A stretch of DNA of 44,388 bases. Origin: a phage. Made by a program: the position numbers and the translations under genes. Where the stretch lies: the sequence record PX136376.1; one strand, written 5' to 3'. Every line of letters begins with the position of its first letter. Within the stretch, counting starts at the first letter, position 1. The notes beneath the pieces are model-generated. The model was not told where the DNA came from. It was given only the letters and a program-made list of their open reading frames with translations, and did no database searches. Below, one piece after another: positions 3,294 through 34,956 of this stretch.

Positions 3294-3296
3294 AGA

Positions 3297-3325
3297 AAAA
3301 GGCCCCTTACAGGGCCTTAGTTTTA
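3297..3325. terminator. bidirectional rho-independent terminator (family copy 1)
   Basis: inverted repeat AAGGCCC/GGGCCTT with A-tract upstream and T-rich tract downstream, between convergent genes; stronger reading on minus strand. Confidence 0.55.
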
Positions 3326-3844
3326 TTTAACTCGCGCAGGCATTAACACCATAAATGCTGTATTTGAAAATGATATTTTACATCCTCTTGTTTGGTCCTG
3401 GAAATCGAAACGGGCAAATTCATTTTTGTATGCCTTAGAAATCTTGTACGCGTCCGCCAAATAGCGCAGAGTGAACCCTATGCTATCTACAGCACCTGGA
3501 GTAATGCGCGCCACGCGTCGCCAGTCAGGAAATTTTCCGTCTACAACATCAACCGGAAGGGTACATATAAGCGCACGACTATCGTCATAGAAAGAAACAT
3601 TGCCGTTGTCGTGGTCTACCTCAGCGTAGTTAAATTTAGAAGGCTCCCTCCCTTTGATGTCTATGAGAACTCCCGTTTCAACGTTTGTCTTCACATTGTC
3701 GCAGAACAATCTATGGCCATCCGTAGAAACTATCAATCCTTCAGGGTCTATGTAAAAAGCGTTAAAATAGTAGCGCACATCATTTTTAGCCCTGCAGATT
3801 TTCGCCCCTACATACGCGGGGAAAGTAATTACTGTAGTAACCAT
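3323..3844 (-). CDS. beta sliding clamp (DnaN)-like protein lacking clamp domain I
   Basis: 173 aa; motifs DVRYYFNA, LIVSTDGHRLF, VDGKFPDWRRV and C-terminal FMVLMPARVK resemble E. coli DnaN domain II/III motifs (recalled from memory); AGGAG RBS 8 nt before ATG; own promoter element upstream. Confidence 0.7.
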   Translation of the reverse strand: MVTTVITFPAYVGAKICRAKNDVRYYFNAFYIDPEGLIVSTDGHRLFCDNVKTNVETGVLIDIKGREPSKFNYAEVDHDNGNVSFYDDSRALICTLPVDVVDGKFPDWRRVARITPGAVDSIGFTLRYLADAYKISKAYKNEFARFDFQDQTRGCKISFSNTAFMVLMPARVK

Positions 3845-3863
3845 TTTTCATCTCCTGTTTAAG

Positions 3864-3900
3864 TTAACTGAATAGTACCCTATTATATTGGTGTCTGCAA
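3864..3900 (-). promoter_or_regulatory. conserved promoter/operator element, class 1 copy 1 (overlapping divergent sigma70-like promoters)
   Basis: minus-strand reading TTGCAG-N17-TACTAT toward the DnaN-like gene; plus-strand reading TTAACT-N17-TATATT toward head morphogenesis gene; central palindrome TAATAG-ggta-CTATTC. Confidence 0.5.
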
Positions 3901-3944
3901 ATATTATTTTTATGCGTTACACTGTCGATACTACAGGAGGGCTT

Positions 3945-4988
3945 ATGAGCTTACTTACATCCCTAATCAGCCACCAGATATGGCTACAACGCGCCGCATC
4001 CGGTGAAGTGAAAGACCTCACACCGTTCATTCAGGAAATGCGGGACGAAATCAAACGACAGGTGCTGTTATTCGGCGACGATGGGCGAAGCACTGCGCGA
4101 CTGAATAAACTGTTACGCGACCTCGAAGAGGCACTAACCGGGCTTACCGATGACTGGCAGACAAAGCTGACAGAAGACCTTAAGGAGCTGGCGGCGTATG
4201 AGGCTGAGTGGAACGTAAAGACGCTGACGGCTAACGTTAACGCGGAATTTGTTACACCTACCGCAGAACAGGTGTTGGCCGCTGCCGAGTTTCAGCCTCT
4301 GTCACTAAGGGACAAGCCGGTTGATTTCACTAAGCTGGTGGATGGCTGGGGTGAAACGGAGGTCGCGCGCCTGGTAACCGGCGTTAAGATGGGTTTTGTG
4401 CAAGGCCAGACAACACGGCAGATTATTAAGAATGTTGTTGGTGCCGGTGGGCTGGCGGACATCTCTGAGCGTAACGCAGCTACCGTAATCCGCACTGCGC
4501 TGTCCCACGTATCCAACGAAGCACGTAACGAGACGTATCGCCAGAACGACGACATTATCGAGAAGTACGAGTGGGTGTCAACGCTGGACAGCCGCACCAG
4601 TACGATTTGCAGGGCCAGAGACGGAATGACGTGGGAAATCGGTAAGGGCCCGATGCCGCCAGCGCATCCAAATTGTCGAAGTACCACAGCCCCGGTGATA
4701 AGTTCCGAGTTCGACTTCCTGGACGTAGGAGCTAAACGCGCGGCTAAAGGCGCAGACGGCGGTACCCAGGTAAGCGCGGACACCACCTATTACGAGTTCC
4801 TGAAACAACAACCAGCGTGGTTTCAGGATGAAGCGCTCGGCCCGGTGCGGGGTAAGATTTTCCGTAACAGTGGTATAACGCCGGAAGAGTTTCGCGTAAT
4901 ATCTGTAGATGGTTTCGGGAACCCGCTCACGCTTAAGCAGATGGCGGAACTCGATAAACGTGTTGCTGATTATCTGAAAGGGGAATAA
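3945..4988 (+). CDS. head morphogenesis protein (Mu F / SPP1 gp7-like minor head protein)
   Basis: C-terminal region contains HPNCRS motif typical of the Mu-F family; RBS acaggaggg before ATG at 3945 (ORF track frame opens at 3888); follows portal. Confidence 0.7.
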   Translation: MSLLTSLISHQIWLQRAASGEVKDLTPFIQEMRDEIKRQVLLFGDDGRSTARLNKLLRDLEEALTGLTDDWQTKLTEDLKELAAYEAEWNVKTLTANVNAEFVTPTAEQVLAAAEFQPLSLRDKPVDFTKLVDGWGETEVARLVTGVKMGFVQGQTTRQIIKNVVGAGGLADISERNAATVIRTALSHVSNEARNETYRQNDDIIEKYEWVSTLDSRTSTICRARDGMTWEIGKGPMPPAHPNCRSTTAPVISSEFDFLDVGAKRAAKGADGGTQVSADTTYYEFLKQQPAWFQDEALGPVRGKIFRNSGITPEEFRVISVDGFGNPLTLKQMAELDKRVADYLKGE

Positions 4989-5449
4989 TGATGGGCTTTT
5001 TCAAAGTAACTGATGTACCGTCGCGTCGCGTAGTCCAGTACGCCCGTGTGTCTGGCTCTGGCGAGAACGTGGTATTTATTGAAAATGAAAGTGTACTCGG
5101 TACACCAGTAGACGATATGCCGTTTGCTGATAAAACCGGTATTGCACTACCGGCGGCGGGTATGCTTTATGAAATTCCGTATCTGGCTGATGCTGGTGAT
5201 GTGTATTTCTCGGTGCAACCGAAAGACACGGAACTGGCAGACGGCAGCGCAACTATCACTGTCGAAGTTAAGGCGGGTAAAGCGCCGTATGCGCTGACCT
5301 GGTACAAAGACGGCAAGGAAGTGGTCAACGCCCCTGAAGAAGCTTTGTCTCTGACGGTTAACGCGGTGGGTGAATACTTCGTTAAAGTCACCGATGCCGA
5401 TGGGGTAGAGGCCGTCAGTAAAGCTGCGAAGGTTACTAAGCCGGAATGA
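4988..5449 (+). CDS. Ig-like domain protein (possible capsid accessory/decoration protein)
   Basis: 153 aa; beta-rich segment ...ALTWYKDGKEV...EYFVKVTDADG resembling an Ig-like fold; start overlaps preceding stop. Confidence 0.5.
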   Translation: MMGFFKVTDVPSRRVVQYARVSGSGENVVFIENESVLGTPVDDMPFADKTGIALPAAGMLYEIPYLADAGDVYFSVQPKDTELADGSATITVEVKAGKAPYALTWYKDGKEVVNAPEEALSLTVNAVGEYFVKVTDADGVEAVSKAAKVTKPE

Positions 5450-5519
5450 TAAAAAGCCGGAATGATAAAAAGCCGGAATGATAAAAAGCCGGAATGATAA
5501 AAAGCCGGAATGATAAAAA
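5440..5519. repeat. perfect tandem repeat, 5 copies of 16-bp unit GCCGGAATGATAAAAA
   Basis: read directly; first unit contains the stop codon of the 4988..5449 CDS; array abuts a terminator hairpin. Confidence 0.95.
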
Positions 5520-5545
5520 GCCCCGCTATGGGGCTTTATTTTTAT
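5515..5545 (+). terminator. rho-independent terminator
   Basis: stem AAAGCCCC/GGGGCTTT with loop GCTAT followed by TTTATTTTT. Confidence 0.65.
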
Positions 5546-5609
5546 ATGAACATCGCGGTGATAGCCGCAGCCGATACCCACAAAACAAAATAAAACATCA
5601 CACTATTTG

Positions 5610-5954
5610 TCATTTGCATTTCTCGTCGTATGTTTGTTGTAACTGCGACAGACGATTACCGGCTGTCATCTCGTCCATAGAAGGCCCGGCGCCCGTGTCC
5701 ATAAAGAACAGCGGAACAATCAGGAATGCGCCTGTAACACCGAGTACAACGTTAGTACCTATTTGCTTATTAACACGGTGCGTAGCGTTGGCTTGAGCTT
5801 GTTTTGTCGTGGCGATTCTCGATAGTAACTGATTACATGTTGCCGTTGTATCCCCTGCCTGATAAACCTGTAAAGCCGGGTCTGGCAACGACCTTACGCA
5901 ACCACTCAAACAAACGGCTACAACACCTGCTACTGCTAATTTAATATATTTCAT
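5610..5954 (-). CDS. lipoprotein (candidate superinfection-exclusion or envelope-modifying protein)
   Basis: 114 aa; signal peptide with lipobox LSGC (MKYIKLAVAGVVAVCLSGC); later hydrophobic stretch VVLGVTGAFLIVPLFF; antisense to structural operon. Confidence 0.65.
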   Translation of the reverse strand: MKYIKLAVAGVVAVCLSGCVRSLPDPALQVYQAGDTTATCNQLLSRIATTKQAQANATHRVNKQIGTNVVLGVTGAFLIVPLFFMDTGAGPSMDEMTAGNRLSQLQQTYDEKCK

Positions 5955-6052
5955 AGTTCACCATTACCCGTGTCAATGTCACCAATACCGCTACAAGCCC
6001 AAAGAAACATCACCGCATCAACTGCAATTACTACTGAAATAACGACTAACAT
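5951..6052 (-). CDS. small hydrophobic membrane peptide (33 aa)
   Basis: MLVVISVVIAVDAVMFLWACSGIGDIDTGNGEL; GGAGG RBS 5 nt upstream; stop overlaps lipoprotein start (ATGA); below ORF-track size cutoff. Confidence 0.45.
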   Translation of the reverse strand: MLVVISVVIAVDAVMFLWACSGIGDIDTGNGEL

Positions 6053-6077
6053 GACGGCCTCCCCGGTTCGATAGAAT

Positions 6078-6108
6078 GAATAGTACCCTATTATATTGGG
6101 GTGTGCAA
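6078..6108 (-). promoter_or_regulatory. conserved promoter/operator element, class 1 copy 2
   Basis: GAATAGTACCCTATTATATTGGGGTGTGCAA, identical to copy at 14882-14912; minus-strand TTGCAC-N17-TACTAT upstream of peptide-lipoprotein pair. Confidence 0.5.
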
Positions 6109-6174
6109 ACTATTTATTTACCTATTCCAGTTATTCCTCTCAATTGTAAATGTTGGAATAAACTATTCGAATAG

Positions 6175-11909: not shown

Positions 11910-13076
11910 ATGGCTACAACTCCTTTTAAGGGCGCGAATACCGCGCAATTCTATGTGGCGGAAGTGACCCCGGGTGTAACACCGACTAACCCGGTCTGGT
12001 CACCATTACGTAACACGGGCGGTGTTCCTGCCATTACCCGTGACACACTGACCTCCAACGAACTCGACGGCAGCCGTGAAACTACATCCATCCGCACCGG
12101 TAACAAACAGGTTAGCGGTGAATACGCAATTGAGCTTAGCTCTAAAAGCCAGGATGACTGGTTGGCAGGTGCTTTAGGCTCTACGTGGCAATCCGGTGTT
12201 TCTCTGCCAGGACTATCGATCACCGTCGCGCCCGCGGGCAAGACGTTCACACGCGCTACCGGCAGTTTTATCACTGACGGAGTTGGGGTAGGCGACCTGA
12301 TTGCGTTTACCGACTTAACAGGCGATAACGCAAAACCATTTATTGTTACCGCAGTAACGGCTACCGTTGTTACTGGTGCAGGCATCCAACACACCCTGAC
12401 CACCGAGACAAAAACTAGTAAGGCTAAAACTGGCGACACGCTGGAAACCGGTAACACATGTAAGACGTTCTCTATTCTCACCTGGTACAAAGGACAGTGC
12501 GGCGGGACTGACGCATACACACTAACCAAAGGTGTGGAAGTTTCCGGTTTCACCGTTGAGCAGGCCGTTAACGCGATGGTTACAGGTAGCTTCCCGTTCA
12601 TCGGGCGCAGCCAGGAGATTCTTACTACGCCGCCGTCTGGTTCCAACTTCTCCTCTGTCACGTTTGGTGATGAGCCATTCTCCTCGGTTGACGTTTCTGT
12701 GTTTGACGGCTATACGCCGTTGCGTTGCGACAGCCTGACCATCACCAACGACAACAGCGCATCCGCGCAGTTCGAACTCGGCAACACTAACGTAGCGTTT
12801 GTAGAACGTAGCCGCGCGGCTAACACCTTCTCCATCTCCGGCAAGCTGTATGACATGGCGATGATTCAGAAGTTTATCAACGAGCAGCAGGTAGAGATTA
12901 ACTCTATTCTGGCGGGGGTAAACGGGGCTATGTCTTTCAGTTTGAAACGTGCGGAGCTTACGGCAGTTACCCCAGAGATTGGCGGACCTGAGTCAATCAC
13001 TCAGTCCATTGAAGGCCAGGCTACTGGCAACCAGTACCAGTCGTCTATTGTTATTCAGCGTATCACCTACGCATAA
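11910..13076 (+). CDS. major tail protein
   Basis: ~389 aa just upstream of chaperone/tape-measure genes; RBS aagagg 9 nt before ATG 11910; followed by strong terminator. Confidence 0.55.
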   Translation: MATTPFKGANTAQFYVAEVTPGVTPTNPVWSPLRNTGGVPAITRDTLTSNELDGSRETTSIRTGNKQVSGEYAIELSSKSQDDWLAGALGSTWQSGVSLPGLSITVAPAGKTFTRATGSFITDGVGVGDLIAFTDLTGDNAKPFIVTAVTATVVTGAGIQHTLTTETKTSKAKTGDTLETGNTCKTFSILTWYKGQCGGTDAYTLTKGVEVSGFTVEQAVNAMVTGSFPFIGRSQEILTTPPSGSNFSSVTFGDEPFSSVDVSVFDGYTPLRCDSLTITNDNSASAQFELGNTNVAFVERSRAANTFSISGKLYDMAMIQKFINEQQVEINSILAGVNGAMSFSLKRAELTAVTPEIGGPESITQSIEGQATGNQYQSSIVIQRITYA

Positions 13077-13106
13077 AACTAAGGCCCCGAAAGGGGCCTT
13101 TTTTAT
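13077..13106. terminator. bidirectional rho-independent terminator (family copy 2)
   Basis: AAGGCCCC-GAAA-GGGGCCTT followed by TTTTTTATT; sits between convergent major tail gene and minus-strand cassette. Confidence 0.7.
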
Positions 13107-13336
13107 TACTCATCAATGTTACTCCTGTACTCCCGTAACTTTTCCAGACTTTCAATTGCTTCCGCTAAGTCGGTTCCGGTGTCCTTGTGTCCACGTAAAC
13201 CCATGCACAATAGCTTCTTCAATGCGTGCTGTAACGCCGGGTCGCGGATGTCGAAAGCGCGGAGCACATCATAAACGTCTACTGTCATAGTGCTGCCGTG
13301 AGTATTTGTCATTGTGCGGTTGTATTTTGAAGTCAT
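13106..13336 (-). CDS. hypothetical protein (76 aa), last gene of minus-strand cassette
   Basis: start overlaps stop of upstream gene (ATGA); no recognised motif. Confidence 0.45.
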   Translation of the reverse strand: MTSKYNRTMTNTHGSTMTVDVYDVLRAFDIRDPALQHALKKLLCMGLRGHKDTGTDLAEAIESLEKLREYRSNIDE

Positions 13337-14463
13337 CCCAGCATCTCCGGTGAAATAGTTAAACGTGCGACCTCGCCATATTCGGCGCTATAAGTAATTA
13401 CATTTGCACTGCGGCCTGACATCCACCCGCCGCGGGAGGCATAGGCGTCTTTAGCCGCTAAGGTGCGGTGTTGCTCAACAATCATGTTACGGCTTTCTAC
13501 AATCTTCTGGTGGTGCAGGTGGCCTACGTGGGCGTAGCTATAGACACTCTCACCGAACGCTTTGCGGAATTTGGCAATCATAACCGGTTCGATAGCATCG
13601 AATCGCGCCTTATGCCCGTGGTGAAAGAACAACGTCGTTTTTCCGTGTTGCACCATCTTGTAAACATCCGGCGACGTATCGACAATCACTCGGCTGTCGT
13701 TCGAATATAAAACTGTGAACATTTCAGCCAGCCATACAGAGCCTACAGGGTCATGGTTCCCCTGTACGATAAGCAAGCGAACATTTTTATGTTTAACCAG
13801 TGCCATATCTACAACACGGCGTACCATACGAATCATGTAGCGGACGAGTTTCTGGTAGCGAGTGTCTGCGTCCAACACGTGACGCGACTCAGGTGTAACG
13901 GCATCCAGACTATCGAAGTGCGCGAAATCACCCAGCAGGTTAATAACTCCTGTTCCTGCATCCGGTGCTTTCTGAAACGCCGCGTCGAACCAACGAGAGA
14001 ACAGGTCTTCCGCAATCTTTATATCCCAGTCGTCGCCGCTCTCGTCGGCCCAGGCAAGCATACCGAGATGGAAATCAGATACCGTGTAAAGATTGAGTAG
14101 CTTGTCGTCGCGTTTGGCTCGAGTCGCTTTAGCCGGCGCAACTGGCGTAATCTCTGACTTCATGCCTTCAATCACGGCTTTCATCAACTCGACCTGACGT
14201 TCAGCGTCGGTGTCTGTCTTAACCCATTGCAACTTAGTATTGCCGAACTCGTCTACCAGAGACGACGTCCCTTTAATCTTGTAGCCGTCTGGGACAAGGT
14301 GGCTAACGTCACGCCCGTGGCCTACACCTTTCTTAGCCAGCTTCGCTTTACGGATACGAATAACTCGGTCTGAGATGCCGTATTTACGGGCGATGTCTAC
14401 ATTCTTCATCCCGGCGTTCAATTCTTCCTGTAACTGTTCGTCGGTTATTTTCTTCTGGGCCAT
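13333..14463 (-). CDS. HTH-domain protein fused to calcineurin-like metallophosphoesterase (Mre11/SbcD-like or phosphatase-like)
   Basis: N-terminal HTH-like segment (NVDIARKYGISDRVIRIRKAKL); metallophosphoesterase motifs DFH, GDFAHFD, GNHD, HHGH, GHLHH; RBS gaggaag. Confidence 0.7.
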   Translation of the reverse strand: MAQKKITDEQLQEELNAGMKNVDIARKYGISDRVIRIRKAKLAKKGVGHGRDVSHLVPDGYKIKGTSSLVDEFGNTKLQWVKTDTDAERQVELMKAVIEGMKSEITPVAPAKATRAKRDDKLLNLYTVSDFHLGMLAWADESGDDWDIKIAEDLFSRWFDAAFQKAPDAGTGVINLLGDFAHFDSLDAVTPESRHVLDADTRYQKLVRYMIRMVRRVVDMALVKHKNVRLLIVQGNHDPVGSVWLAEMFTVLYSNDSRVIVDTSPDVYKMVQHGKTTLFFHHGHKARFDAIEPVMIAKFRKAFGESVYSYAHVGHLHHQKIVESRNMIVEQHRTLAAKDAYASRGGWMSGRSANVITYSAEYGEVARLTISPEMLG

Positions 14464-14528
14464 GCTTACTTCCTCGTGTTTAGGATTTGTCCTATTTAAC
14501 CACAGTGGATTCCTTTAAATAAAGGCAA

Positions 14529-14855
14529 CTATTTACTTTCTGCGCCTATTGCCCATCCAGTCATTACCATTTGCAGACGGGTGGCTGTCAGAAGGCTGTA
14601 AAACGCGTCCCCGGTTTTCTCTACCGAACGTATTACCGTGTATGTTACGGCTTGCGGAGGTAGGCCCGATTTACCGACATCTACGGCGGCCTCGCATTCA
14701 CGGACTGTGGAGTCCTTAAATGCCTTTACAATAGTAGGGTCGGCTTTATCAAGCACACCAGAAGTCATAAGAACAGATTCACTAAATACCTGTTCGCACG
14801 GGGCTCCAAAAGTAGCAAAAGACATAAACCCCAGAGCTAATACTAATTTACGCAT
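14529..14855 (-). CDS. secreted/periplasmic protein (108 aa)
   Basis: N-terminal signal peptide MRKLVLALGFMSFATFGA; RBS gagga; first gene downstream of conserved promoter element. Confidence 0.55.
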   Translation of the reverse strand: MRKLVLALGFMSFATFGAPCEQVFSESVLMTSGVLDKADPTIVKAFKDSTVRECEAAVDVGKSGLPPQAVTYTVIRSVEKTGDAFYSLLTATRLQMVMTGWAIGAESK

Positions 14856-14881
14856 AATTATTTCCTCAGTAAGTTACATGT

Positions 14882-14912
14882 GAATAGTACCCTATTATAT
14901 TGGGGTGTGCAA
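14882..14912 (-). promoter_or_regulatory. conserved promoter/operator element, class 1 copy 3
   Basis: minus-strand TTGCAC-N17-TACTAT upstream of the three-gene cassette; plus-strand TTACAT-N17-TATATT toward tail chaperone gene. Confidence 0.5.
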
Positions 14913-15019
14913 GTAGTGTGCTAGAATAAGTTTGCGCCTAGTGTCGCACACGAAAAGCGGGTGGTTCCCGCCTGGCGCATTAACCATAACCAGTAACCTC
15001 TTAACCAAAGGACTAAAGA

Positions 15020-15436
15020 ATGAAACTTTCTGATTTCTATTTTGCCGACCGCCACGCCGCCGGTACTAAAATGCCTATCCTTCTGCCCAGTGGTAAAGAT
15101 TCCGGTGAATGGTTGCAGGTCATCGGCCCCGATTGTGACGCTGGTGTTCGTGCGGGCCGTGCCTACACAACGGCAATTCGACGCCTTACGGAAGAACTTG
15201 CGCCATTAGATAAAGAGTGCGAGGCGCTGAATAACTGGGCGCGCTATAATGATGAGAAGGGCTGGCGGGTGATGGACCTGAACAAGCAGCTTGCCGTGGA
15301 AATCGTCACCGGTTGGTCATTCGACGAACCATTCAGCAAAGAGGCGCTTGCTAACCTGTTCGACCAGTACAGTGGGTTGGCAGAGGCCGTAGTTAAGCAT
15401 CACACCGATAGCCGTGAGAAACTCTCGGAAAAGTAA
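15020..15436 (+). CDS. tail assembly chaperone (lambda gpG-like)
   Basis: 138 aa immediately upstream of tape measure gene; followed by a -1-frame ORF extension. Confidence 0.6.
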   Translation: MKLSDFYFADRHAAGTKMPILLPSGKDSGEWLQVIGPDCDAGVRAGRAYTTAIRRLTEELAPLDKECEALNNWARYNDEKGWRVMDLNKQLAVEIVTGWSFDEPFSKEALANLFDQYSGLAEAVVKHHTDSREKLSEK

Positions 15437-22954: not shown

Positions 22955-24886
22955 ATGTCAAGCGGATGTGGTGACGTTTTAAGCCTGGCGGATTTACAAA
23001 CCGCCAAGAAACACCAAATTTTTGAAGCCGAGGTTATCACCGGTAAAGCTGGCGGTGTAGCTACGGGTGCTGATATCGATTACGCGACAAATCAGGTTAC
23101 AGGGCAGACTCAGAAGACGCTCCCGGCCGTGTTGCGTGACGCCGGGTTCAGACCTGCGCCATTCACATTCGAAACAGGTGGGACTTTGGGCGTTAACGAC
23201 GCTGACCTGGCGGTGTTGTGGCCAGGGCCATCAGGCGACGGCAACTATTATGCATGGAAAGGTGCCCTGCCAAAAACCATCCCGGCATCTTCAACCCCGG
23301 CGTCTACGGGCGGAGTAGGCCAGACCGCATGGGTTGCCGTTAGTGAAGCTGCATTGCGCCGTGATTTGGCCCTAAGCACTGGCGCAGGGCTAGTCGGTAC
23401 GTCTTCGGGTCGCACAGTGCAAGGCGAGGTTGACCATTTCAAAATAGGGTATATGACACCCGATGATTTCGGCGCGGTGGGTGATGGTGTTACCGACGAC
23501 ACCGCGCCTTTGCAACAGGCTATTGACTATTGCTCAAGCAACGGTATCGCGTTAAGAATCCCCGCAAAATCTTATGTTTGGAATGGCGGTATTATAACTT
23601 CACCCGTAACAATAATCGGTGACAGACGTCCTGATTACAATCTTAGCTCCAATTCTATGTCTAACGGGTCTGTTATAATTGGCAATTTAAGATTTTCCGC
23701 AAGCCAGGTGATTATTAAGTCACTTGGTGTGCGTAGGCCTACAGGCTCCCCAGGAGATTGTCTGGTGTTATCGACCGATAACTATGCTGGTGGGTCTTGT
23801 ATTGTTCAAGATGTAGTTGCCGCGGGCCTTTCCGGTTCGGACACGTACCACAGCGTTCTTGTTGAAGGCTACGATTCCGCGCATGTATCTCAAATAACTG
23901 GCGGTTATAATCTTTTTGGCCTCGCGATTAAGTCAAGAAACGTTGTTGCCAGAGGCGTAATAACCGTAAGCTGTGATACTGGCGTTATCATTAAATCTGA
24001 TAGTGAGTTCAGCACGGCAAAAAATGTGGTGCTGGACGGGCACATTAATGTCGGTAATGGTGTTTCTAGTCAAGGTGTTTGGATTTACAGCACAACCGCA
24101 CAACTTGAGCGTATTACCTGCGCAAACTTACAAAGCATCGATTCCGCTATACATATGCGGATTAAGTCCGAAAACGTAGCTAATGACGTGCAAATTGTTG
24201 GGGCAAATTATTCAGGATCTACTTATGCGGATGTGCTCGTCGAAGGCACTTCGGCTGGCACGTTGTACAATGTTAGTTTAGATAGTATAACCGCAGTAAA
24301 TAGCCAGAAATTTATGGCTGCAGGTTTCTGTGAACAACTGATGGTAACAGGATTCTATGGGTCCCTGAAACCTGGCGCTCCCGCCGATACTGCGTTTGAG
24401 GTTAGCGCCGCCGTAGGGCTTTTTAGCGGGTCAAATATCCAACTAGTCCGTCAATACAGCAGTGACCTAATGACAATGAATCTCGGTAACAGTTATCTTA
24501 ATAATAGATTATCATCTGTTAAGGCGAAAGTAATAGGAAACGGCAAACCTAGGCCGGGGTATAAAGAACAGAATCTTAGCGGCGCTGCGGCTACAATGAT
24601 TGTTGGCGACAGTTTGGGGCCCTCTGGGGTTGTGTCTGTCACCGCGATATCCGCCGGCAGTTCATTCAGCAGTATTGCTATTAATGACGACTATGGTCAG
24701 CCGGTTAAGCCAGGTTTTCTTCTAATAATCCGAAACGCATCCGCTATCTCGTTCGTTATGAACCATAATCCAGGGTCTGGTGGAATCGCAAATAACGGGG
24801 CGGTTGGTAAGACCATTGCGGGCGGAGACACTATAATGTACGTTTTTGACGGGACGAATTGGCGTCAAACTCCATCTATAGCTTAA
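22955..24886 (+). CDS. tailspike / polysaccharide depolymerase with pectate-lyase-like beta-helix
   Basis: 643 aa; FGAVGDGVTDDTAPLQQAIDY motif typical of the pectate-lyase superfamily; RBS aagagga; last gene of structural operon. Confidence 0.75.
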   Translation: MSSGCGDVLSLADLQTAKKHQIFEAEVITGKAGGVATGADIDYATNQVTGQTQKTLPAVLRDAGFRPAPFTFETGGTLGVNDADLAVLWPGPSGDGNYYAWKGALPKTIPASSTPASTGGVGQTAWVAVSEAALRRDLALSTGAGLVGTSSGRTVQGEVDHFKIGYMTPDDFGAVGDGVTDDTAPLQQAIDYCSSNGIALRIPAKSYVWNGGIITSPVTIIGDRRPDYNLSSNSMSNGSVIIGNLRFSASQVIIKSLGVRRPTGSPGDCLVLSTDNYAGGSCIVQDVVAAGLSGSDTYHSVLVEGYDSAHVSQITGGYNLFGLAIKSRNVVARGVITVSCDTGVIIKSDSEFSTAKNVVLDGHINVGNGVSSQGVWIYSTTAQLERITCANLQSIDSAIHMRIKSENVANDVQIVGANYSGSTYADVLVEGTSAGTLYNVSLDSITAVNSQKFMAAGFCEQLMVTGFYGSLKPGAPADTAFEVSAAVGLFSGSNIQLVRQYSSDLMTMNLGNSYLNNRLSSVKAKVIGNGKPRPGYKEQNLSGAAATMIVGDSLGPSGVVSVTAISAGSSFSSIAINDDYGQPVKPGFLLIIRNASAISFVMNHNPGSGGIANNGAVGKTIAGGDTIMYVFDGTNWRQTPSIA

Positions 24887-24916
24887 AACTAAGGCCCCAA
24901 ACGGGGCCTTTTCTCT
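24887..24916. terminator. bidirectional rho-independent terminator (family copy 3)
   Basis: AAGGCCCC-AAAC-GGGGCCTT followed by TTCTCT; convergence point of structural and replication modules. Confidence 0.65.
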
Positions 24917-27451: not shown

Positions 27452-27767
27452 TTCTAAATTCCTTATATTGTTGGGGTATGTGCTTACTATAATAGTCTGC
27501 TATTAGGGTGTCAATCTGTTTTATCGAACCAACGACAAAAACATTTGCGCCACGTTTACGTATACGCTCGTGTTCCCGTAGCTGGTGCGGGTCTGGCTTA
27601 GTGTTTTCGTCTTTCTTCACCTCGACGAACCAGACGATGCCGCCGGGTAGAATTGCCAGCAGGTCAGGAGCGCCTGAACGTCCTTCGTAGGAAAGTTTAC
27701 GAACGAGGCCACCAATGGCCTCGAATCGCTCTTTTGCGTATTTCTGGATGCGGCCCTCTTTAGTCAT
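27435..27767 (-). CDS. VRR-NUC domain nuclease
   Basis: 110 aa; PDLLAIL...VWFVEVKK pattern consistent with VRR-NUC PD-(D/E)XK core (recalled). Confidence 0.6.
   Translation of the reverse strand: MTKEGRIQKYAKERFEAIGGLVRKLSYEGRSGAPDLLAILPGGIVWFVEVKKDENTKPDPHQLREHERIRKRGANVFVVGSIKQIDTLIADYYSKHIPQQYKEFRNETRI
27486..27514 (-). promoter_or_regulatory. class 2 promoter with palindromic operator (internal to VRR-NUC coding region)
   Basis: minus-strand TTGACA-N17-TATAGT with perfect palindrome TAATAG-tctg-CTATTA in spacer/-10. Confidence 0.45.
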
Positions 27768-31911: not shown

Positions 31912-31970
31912 CGTGATTTCTCGCTTTTAAGTTTCGTTTACTCCGGGAAGCTGCCCGGTCAGTGATTAGA

Positions 31971-31999
31971 ACTATAATAGCTAACTATTCAGGTGTCAA
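31971..31999 (-). promoter_or_regulatory. class 2 promoter with palindromic operator
   Basis: minus-strand TTGACA-N17-TATAGT; palindrome TAATAG-ctaa-CTATTC; ~55 nt upstream of SSB-like gene start. Confidence 0.5.
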
Positions 32000-34835: not shown

Positions 34836-34863
34836 ATCTGCCCCTCTCGTTTGGTATGGGCTA

Positions 34864-34893
34864 ACTATAATAGCGAACTATTCACATGTCAAT
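34864..34893 (-). promoter_or_regulatory. class 2 promoter with palindromic operator O1
   Basis: minus-strand TTGACA-N17-TATAGT; palindrome TAATAG-cgaa-CTATTC. Confidence 0.5.
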
Positions 34894-34911
34894 GGGCTTT
34901 TCTAAAATAAT

Positions 34912-34927
34912 TAATATGGTACTATTC
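34912..34927. promoter_or_regulatory. second operator-like site O2
   Basis: TAATAT-ggta-CTATTC, one mismatch from O1 half-site; ~30 bp upstream of the HTH gene start. Confidence 0.4.
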
Positions 34928-34956
34928 ACATATCAACTGACTAAGGAGTAATTGAC

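Follow-up and report, generated by a model that had tools for sequence, protein, structure and literature searches.

An accessory operon in the tail tube/chaperone slot of a Kagunavirus genome and its predicted DNA-tethered metallophosphoesterase

Two early phage metallophosphoesterases (MPEs), A1 of T5 (bioRxiv 10.64898/2026.04.02.716235) and Gp48 of mycobacteriophage A10ZJ24 (PMC12287305), are reported to degrade host DNA. A gene annotated as 'DNA repair exonuclease' is found in 508 of 522 Drexlerviridae (97%) and counts as core there; the commonest genes downstream of it are PNK and a deoxynucleoside monophosphate (dNMP) kinase, and the arrangement has been read as nucleotide supply (PMC13164509). 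The present work concerns three genes, g1, g2 and g3, that lie antisense among the structural genes of a phage genome of 44,388 nucleotides (record PX136376.1; this whole stretch is called the window). The second gene, g2, encodes a predicted fusion of a helix-turn-helix (HTH) domain with an MPE. The locus is a self-contained accessory operon in a fixed slot of variable content, the tail tube/chaperone junction of Guernseyvirinae. Coordinates are collected in Table 1.

PHROG 704 phages, i.e., T1-like Drexlerviridae, Dhillonvirus and Jersey-like phages, encode proteins that are homologous to g2 over the full length and have the identical layout of HTH, β-hairpin and MPE domain. The PHROG 704 profile, named 'DNA repair exonuclease', aligns residues 3–375 of g2 with positions 1–389 of 390 (E 1.5e-162). 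g2 is a member of this family, and the sole difference from the other members is genomic position, which here is antisense in the tail module. A sequence-only reading of the window had attributed to g2 a full MPE motif set, and all five calcineurin-like motifs are present, as follows: VSD130-F-H132 and G178-D179-FAHF-D184 (motifs 1 and 2), and G235-N236-H237-D238, H281-H282-G-H284 and G314-H315-L-H317-H318 (motifs 3 to 5). Nine positions, D130, H132, G178, D179, N236, H237, H282, G314 and H317, are invariant in 50 homologues of 32–48% identity. An active enzyme is favored because the metal-binding and catalytic residues are invariant across homologues this diverse. The AlphaFold model of g2 is confident (mean predicted local distance difference test, pLDDT, 90.5), and it has the β-sandwich fold expected of the calcineurin-like MPE superfamily. 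In Pfam, the PF12850 score of g2 is 17 bits, under the gathering cut-off of 21.5, and PF00149 is matched at E<0.01 in 14 of the 50 family members; judged from sequence, g2 is a divergent MPE subfamily. NCBIfam gave nothing useful for g1, g2 or g3. The comparison with Jersey yields a dN/dS of 0.079 in g2 and of 0.033 in g3.

The N-terminal HTH claimed by the same reading is supported by Pfam matches in family members and by three modeled helices, with DNA binding as the predicted function. Model confidence is high at residues 11–40 (pLDDT ~91–95) and lower toward both ends. Taken alone, g2 matches HTH profiles weakly (GerE, E 0.026; FixJ, E 0.0029, aligned in the C-terminal part of FixJ). Among the 50 relatives, Sigma70_r4_2 is matched by seven (best E 1.5e-9) and GerE by four (best 2.4e-8), and HTH_23 and others are also found. 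The HTH is the least conserved part of g2; the alignment with the homologues in Campylobacter and in Roseobacter RDJL Phi 1 begins no earlier than residue ~57–65. A β-hairpin (61–85) and a helix, together residues 61–102, precede the MPE domain and are conserved, G74 and W80 being nearly invariant.

Structure comparison ranks the nucleases PolD-DP1, Mre11 and SbcD nearest to the g2 model, at 12–17% identity. Small-molecule phosphodiesterases, among them the class III cyclic nucleotide monophosphate (cNMP) phosphodiesterase Rv0805, come lower in the ranking. Weak links of sequence and structure connect g2 to the 'Nuclease MPE' of P. putida. PDB sequences, searched both with the g2 sequence alone and with a profile, returned weak HTH and motif-level matches only. 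From its sequence and model, g2 is predicted to be a catalytically intact two-metal phosphoesterase with a fused DNA-binding-type domain and a fold nearest to that of DNA nucleases.

The g2 family is large. An exhaustive search (E up to 1e-3) found 4,567 clusters at 50% identity, mostly of 370–420 residues, and tblastn detected the gene in 2,037 phage records, with query coverage of 80% or more in 1,960 of these. Homologues are carried by Guernseyvirinae, Dhillonvirus, Drexlerviridae, an Erwinia podovirus, and Yersinia, Vibrio, Rhizobium, Roseobacter and Campylobacter phages. Protein identity to g2 is 100% in Bas75, 85% in Jersey, 73% in Dhillonvirus and 44% in T1. Outside Guernseyvirinae the contexts are non-structural, either beside DNA-metabolism genes or just ahead of lysis or packaging genes. 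That is, the homologue stands ahead of the lysis genes in T1 and Webervirus; between the lysis genes and the small terminase gene in Dhillonvirus, where identity is high despite the unrelated context; among DNA-metabolism genes in the podovirus Erwinia phiEa100; and just after the SSB gene in a Vibrio phage. In Campylobacter CPX a DNA ligase gene lies directly upstream of the homologue, and in phiEa100 a ligase gene lies three genes downstream of the MPE gene, past HAD and P-loop genes. The order MPE, HAD_PNKP, P-loop recurs in four unrelated groups: K1H, Webervirus, Yersinia vB_YenM_126 and Erwinia phiEa100. The HAD neighbor matches PF25109 (HAD_PNKP, E 7e-20) and, in PDB, Pnkp1 (1.7e-6) and T4 Pnk (1.6e-5); the P-loop neighbor matches phrog_139, a dNMP kinase family (E 2.6e-46).

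The operon is bracketed by its own signals, as the sequence-only reading had stated. The putative promoter has a core, TTGCACACCCCAATATAATAGGGTAC, of 26 nt that reads TTGCAC-N17-TACTAT, with TATAAT within the spacer. The core occurs four times in the window at no more than two mismatches and not at all in 100 shuffles, and downstream of each of the four copies, within ~20–30 nt on the same strand, come a Shine-Dalgarno motif and a start codon. Three copies head - strand mini-cassettes inside the + strand structural genes; the fourth heads a + strand block of small genes at ~38.4 kb. Because the promoter type is common to the operon and this block, early co-expression of the two is suggested. 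At the other end, the hairpin at 13081–13100 scores as a terminator on either strand, with a T-run that is good on + and weaker on -. The tail-tube gene (+) and the operon (-) converge on this hairpin and share it. It recurs, at 91% identity, at 24881–24912, where, from composition and the Bas73 map, + strand tail genes meet a - strand block. Each of g1 and g2 has the ribosome-binding sequence GAGGAA ahead of its start, the g1-g2 gap contains no internal terminator or structured RNA (z-score 0.32), and the g2 stop and g3 start share an ATGA overlap; the three genes thus read as one operon, in which g2 and g3 are probably translationally coupled.

The operon promoter is overlapped by a promoter-like site on the opposite strand, from which, hypothetically, transcription of the chaperone and tape-measure genes could resume. 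A second promoter family, TTGACA-N17-TATAGT, stands on the - strand ahead of replication-region genes (27475–27522, 31970–31999 and 34853–34936). The + strand site GTTACA-17-TATATT has a mirror-image likeness to these promoters, and the second family and the operon promoter (14881–14924) have in common the mirror-image palindromic core AATAG-N4-CTATT, which may be a shared operator or may reflect overlapping divergent promoters. Bas73_0025, a 30-residue 'hypothetical protein' and probably an artifact of annotation, matches ~14895–14987 on the - strand, a stretch that holds the promoter element.

Megablast searches with the locus and with the left 25 kb identify the whole window as a complete Kagunavirus genome (Guernseyvirinae). 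GertrudWoker_Bas73, an Escherichia phage from the extended BASEL collection, shares 98.7% identity with it over 12800–15300 and 96% across 95% of the left 25 kb; hundreds of other Escherichia and Salmonella relatives also match the window. In the Bas73 gene map, + strand structural genes extend to ~25 kb and are followed by - strand replication genes, small + strand genes and lysis genes. All three antisense open reading frames (ORFs) were found exactly where they had first been placed, and the junction is as first described: the gene upstream of the cassette encodes a Phage_tube_2 tail tube protein (Pfam E 7.5e-36), and downstream lie two tail assembly chaperone genes (Phage_TAC_4 and Phage_TAC_18). 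By homology the three genes themselves are non-structural, which speaks against a structural role for the cassette. The slot is syntenic in Bas73, K1H, fFiEco02 and Jersey, published relatives in which it is annotated, and its gene content varies. Jersey has the same three genes and one annotated anti-repressor; K1H has g1, the MPE gene and then, in place of g3, genes for a HAD phosphatase and a P-loop protein; fFiEco02 has an extra 66-residue ORF and an HNH endonuclease. HNH homing-endonuclease genes are in the slot of several Kagunavirus genomes (fFiEco02, L003 2384–3016; NTEC3; 590B; AV104), and in phage T1 a homing endonuclease adjoins the g2 homologue. Homing endonucleases may aid gene movement into the hotspot.

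Two earlier claims about the locus find no support. The first, that the combination was not a described one, is at odds with the annotated synteny in these relatives and with the identity of g2 with its Bas75 counterpart; as a discovery the locus is ordinary, its genes being already annotated in many sequenced relatives. The second is that the three genes form a unit. tblastn finds g2 in far more records than g3 (774) or g1 (99), g2 occurs elsewhere without an adjoining g1 or g3, and in other contexts only g2, or g3, recurs singly. These different distributions and the differing slot content mark the three-gene set, on comparative sequence grounds, as a hotspot for accessory genes that carries transcription signals of its own rather than a co-evolved system of three proteins. 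The locus resembles phage morons and the hotspots within late operons in having its own promoter (predicted) and terminator, in its opposite orientation, in a content that differs from one close relative to another and in the homing endonucleases inserted there. Unlike morons, g2 is conserved and is probably a DNA-metabolism gene rather than one for host fitness or lysogenic conversion, and the phage is virulent. Between window positions 13106–14463 and Jersey (L011 4893–6250), amino acid identity is 85% for g2 and 92% for g3, with 68% for the tube protein, 59% for the chaperone and 58% for g1. The high g2 and g3 values suggest unusually strong constraint, or a recent exchange of g2 and g3 between genera.

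Table 1. Positions of the operon, its signals and the other antisense mini-cassettes in the window.
Feature	Position	Strand	Description
g1	14855..14529	-	108 aa; predicted exported protein; phrog_14165
g2	14463..13333	-	376 aa; HTH-metallophosphoesterase fusion; PHROG 704
g2 three-helix HTH, aa 8–44	14332..14442	-	predicted; sigma-70 region 4 / LuxR-GerE type; helices 8–16, 21–28, 32–44
g2 MPE domain, aa 119–376	13336..14109	-	calcineurin-like; from motifs, model and structure comparison
g3	13336..13106	-	76 aa; phrog_2452; β-hairpin and three helices
Conserved promoter element (putative)	14881..14924 (core 14887–14912)	-	core TTGCACACCCCAATATAATAGGGTAC, present four times in the window; GAGGAA and the ATG of g1 come after the element
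Opposite-strand promoter-like site	14873..14901	+	GTTACA-17-TATATT; 9/12 consensus matches; overlaps the element
GC-rich hairpin terminator	13081–13100	both	AAGGCCCC-GAAA-GGGGCCTT; 8 pairs, 6 GC
Promoter element copy	3875–3900	-	heads second mini-cassette
173-aa ORF	3844..3323	-	phrog_3007 ('RusA-like resolvase'), E 7e-37
Terminator-like hairpin	3296–3327		second mini-cassette
Promoter element copy	6083–6108	-	heads third mini-cassette
33-aa hydrophobic ORF	6052..5951	-	overlaps the 114-aa lipoprotein ORF
114-aa lipoprotein ORF	5954..5610	-	lipobox LSGC; phrog_13472, function-unknown family
Terminator-like hairpin	5515–5546		third mini-cassette

The first gene of the operon encodes a candidate exported protein. 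Its N-terminus is MRK followed by LVLALGFMSFATFG and then (A/S/H)-P-C-E, APCE in the window protein. By inspection this is a Sec-type signal peptide, with an n-h-c layout, small residues at -3/-1 and no lipobox; the architecture, which had been proposed for the window protein, is kept across homologues. The basic start, the hydrophobic stretch and an invariant P-C-E persist in homologues down to 58% identity. Cleavage is predicted after G18, leaving a mature protein of ~90 residues in which C20 and C54, both invariant, likely form a disulfide. g1 matches phrog_14165, a family of unknown function (E 5.5e-55), and has no match in Pfam, NCBIfam or PADLOC. Only 22 clusters were found among 5.8 billion proteins, mostly on phage-sized contigs, and the records that hold the gene are all of Guernseyvirinae type. 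Sequence features characterize g1 as a lineage-restricted periplasmic protein, predicted to be exported; a role at the envelope, e.g., in superinfection exclusion, is plausible.

The third gene is distributed differently. In phiKP26 and ICP2, g3 stands alone among small early-region genes. A g3-like domain is the C-terminal part of a 193-residue fusion in Acinetobacter P711 (Obolenskvirus; L008 2135–2716) and forms the C-terminus of a 251-residue protein in Salmonella phage SE1 (Nonagvirus; L009 1919–2674), where the fusion gene sits between QueE-like and amidotransferase genes of a 7-deazaguanine (queuosine-type) DNA-modification cluster. The N-terminal parts of these fusions have no match in Pfam, NCBIfam or PDB. 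The PHROG matches of g3 fall on the C-terminal part of profiles of 235–250 columns, one of them named ATPase; the long PHROG members with g3 similarity are other N-terminal domains fused to a g3-like C-terminal domain. The idea that g3 is what is left of K1H's P-loop 'ATP-binding' gene was considered and rejected, as BLASTP gave no alignment. By its occurrence, g3 is a widely shared small domain.

What does the operon do? We put slightly above an even chance an account in which it is a self-contained accessory operon rather than a system, g2 would be an early, DNA-tethered Mn/Mg nuclease, and g1 and g3 would be proteins unrelated to it. The most likely role of g2, from sequence and model, would be host-DNA breakdown, nucleotide salvage or DNA end processing. 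Host RNA polymerase would transcribe the operon from the promoter type that it shares with the presumably early small-gene block. The HTH would tether the enzyme to DNA, and the Mn/Mg site would cleave DNA phosphodiester bonds, as an exo- or endonuclease. Host DNA would be degraded and/or DNA ends processed, thereby supplying phage DNA replication. In relatives, the PNKP-type 3'-phosphatase and the dNMP-kinase-like protein would complete a salvage or end-healing route, of which the present phage would keep the nuclease alone.

A number of points weigh against this account. The PF00149 score of g2, 22.1 bits, is under the gathering cut-off of 27. The C-terminal capping domain of Mre11 and SbcD is absent, as the g2 model stops with the MPE domain at residue 376 and its extra parts are N-terminal; no Rad50/SbcC partner is present among the neighbors or anywhere in the annotated genome of Bas73, its 96%-identical relative; and in place of the OB fold of PolD DP1 there is only the β-hairpin 61–85 ahead of the MPE domain. 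Nor does the annotated Bas73 genome contain a DP2-like gene. Lacking the capping domain, the OB fold and Rad50/SbcC, and carrying an N-terminal HTH instead, g2 falls outside the Mre11/SbcD and DP1 families. The two enzymes reported to degrade host DNA, A1 and Gp48, are likened to g2 by function only. Homology of g2 to T5 A1 is rejected, hhalign giving a probability of 19.7% over 21 columns round motif III (NHD..S.WL). In the window, tblastn finds no HAD, kinase or ligase partner gene, which makes the neighborhood evidence indirect here. Promoter similarity is the sole basis for the early timing. Finally, in the searchable literature we found no experimental work on any member of the g2 family, including those of Kagunavirus, Drexlerviridae and T1, but only the comparative-genomic study PMC13164509.

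The foremost competing explanation, which we regard as unlikely but worth serious attention, is end healing, or counter-defense by repair. Here g2 would trim damaged or blocked DNA or RNA termini; in relatives the PNKP-type 3'-phosphatase, kinase and ligase would reseal breaks made by host nucleases, and in the present phage the trimming step alone would remain. Such a pathway would resemble the bacterial Lhr-MPE and LIG-Lhr-MPE-Exo clusters, or T4 Pnkp with ligase. The PNKP-type character of the HAD neighbor in relatives, the ligase genes near the MPE gene of two unrelated phages (phiEa100 and CPX), the weak links of g2 to the P. putida enzyme and the PHROG 704 name all fit it. The end-healing enzymes T4 Pnkp and bacterial Pnkp1 and the P. 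putida Nuclease MPE repair clusters are echoed by the HAD gene and occasional ligase of g2 relatives; the likeness stops at the window, where the partners are absent, and the kinase of the relatives resembles a dNMP kinase and not a polynucleotide kinase.

A broader picture drawn by analogy, and in our judgment improbable, is that the g2 family would be general early nucleases with which these phages break down or process DNA, that in Guernseyvirinae g2 would be paired with g3 as a regulator or a protector of phage DNA, as a fused and rearranged analogue of A1/A2, and that g1 would be a new periplasmic superinfection-exclusion factor. In T5 the enzyme A1 is accompanied by a separate DNA-binding protein, A2, whereas here the DNA-binding-type domain is fused to g2; hhalign was negative for homology of g2 to A2.

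More doubtful still is a genuine module in which g2 and g3, perhaps with g1, would cooperate, e.g., as a nuclease with its regulator or protector, like A1 with A2. The overlap of the g2 stop and g3 start fits it, as does the higher conservation of g2 and g3 than of the tube and chaperone proteins relative to Jersey, and the two genes occur in similar numbers of records at identities of at least 60% (~404 for g3 and ~459 for g2). Yet g2 is without an adjoining g3 in K1H, T1, Webervirus, Dhillonvirus, phiEa100 and the Vibrio, Rhizobium and Campylobacter phages, the g3 hidden Markov model giving no match beside the MPE gene in the non-Guernseyvirinae loci examined. In turn g3 occurs apart from g2, solo or fused to other domains, and the scarcity of g1 argues against its membership.

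An anti-defense function or a part in inter-phage competition, both raised in the sequence-only reading, found no direct support. As an anti-defense enzyme, g2 would be a phosphodiesterase that destroys a host immune signal (a cyclic oligonucleotide, cNMP, NAD-derived or m6dAMP-type molecule), with the HTH serving separately in regulation; we consider this very improbable. It would suit the placing of Rv0805 and other small-molecule phosphodiesterases among the structural matches and a moron-like, probably early operon. Against it, nuclease-branch structures rank first, a DNA-binding-type domain is fused and conserved across the family, and PADLOC-DB profiles gave no matches to g1, g2 or g3 at E up to 0.1. 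Near-universal presence in Drexlerviridae (PMC13164509) suits DNA housekeeping better, whereas anti-defense genes are typically patchy. Kagunavirus isolates are reported to be highly sensitive to restriction-modification and to vary in their sensitivity to Old, and no unusual resistance is mentioned for the group (PMC11990801). That g2 is chiefly a transcription regulator, with a sensory or inactive phosphoesterase domain, is scarcely credible: the sigma-70 region 4/LuxR-type matches, a palindromic core in the phage promoters that could be an operator, and the GenBank names of some homologues ('transcriptional regulator' and 'winged helix-turn-helix domain-containing protein'; others are named 'metallophosphoesterase') point that way, but the metal-binding and catalytic residues are invariant in 50 members, and the HTH is the least conserved part, the Campylobacter and RDJL Phi 1 matches beginning past it.

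The locus bears on phages of practical interest. HTH-fused MPEs, core to several families of small siphoviruses, are found in nearly all T1-like, Dhillonvirus and Jersey/Kagunavirus phages, groups from which candidates for therapy and biocontrol are commonly drawn. Settling whether g2 acts in host-DNA breakdown, nucleotide supply or phage-DNA repair would fill a gap in the biology of small siphoviruses, and BASEL phages Bas70–76 offer a tractable E. coli K-12 system for the purpose. Three antisense cassettes with one promoter type are naturally variable insertion sites, convenient for phage engineering.

The other two of these cassettes are smaller. The second, at 3296–3912, lies between the portal and head-morphogenesis genes and is apparently absent at this position in the Bas73 annotation. 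Its 173-residue ORF, besides the match in Table 1, weakly matches sliding clamps (phrog_947, processivity factor, 3.8e-9; NCBIfam DnaN, E 0.0015, residues 19–111). The third, at 5515–6120, is a candidate for an envelope or superinfection-exclusion function, as its sequence features suggest. Next to it is a tandem array (5428–5522) of ~5–6 copies of a 16-bp unit, GAATGATAAAAAGCCG, which begins at the end of a Hoc-like decoration gene (4988..5449) and extends into the hairpin at 5515–5546.

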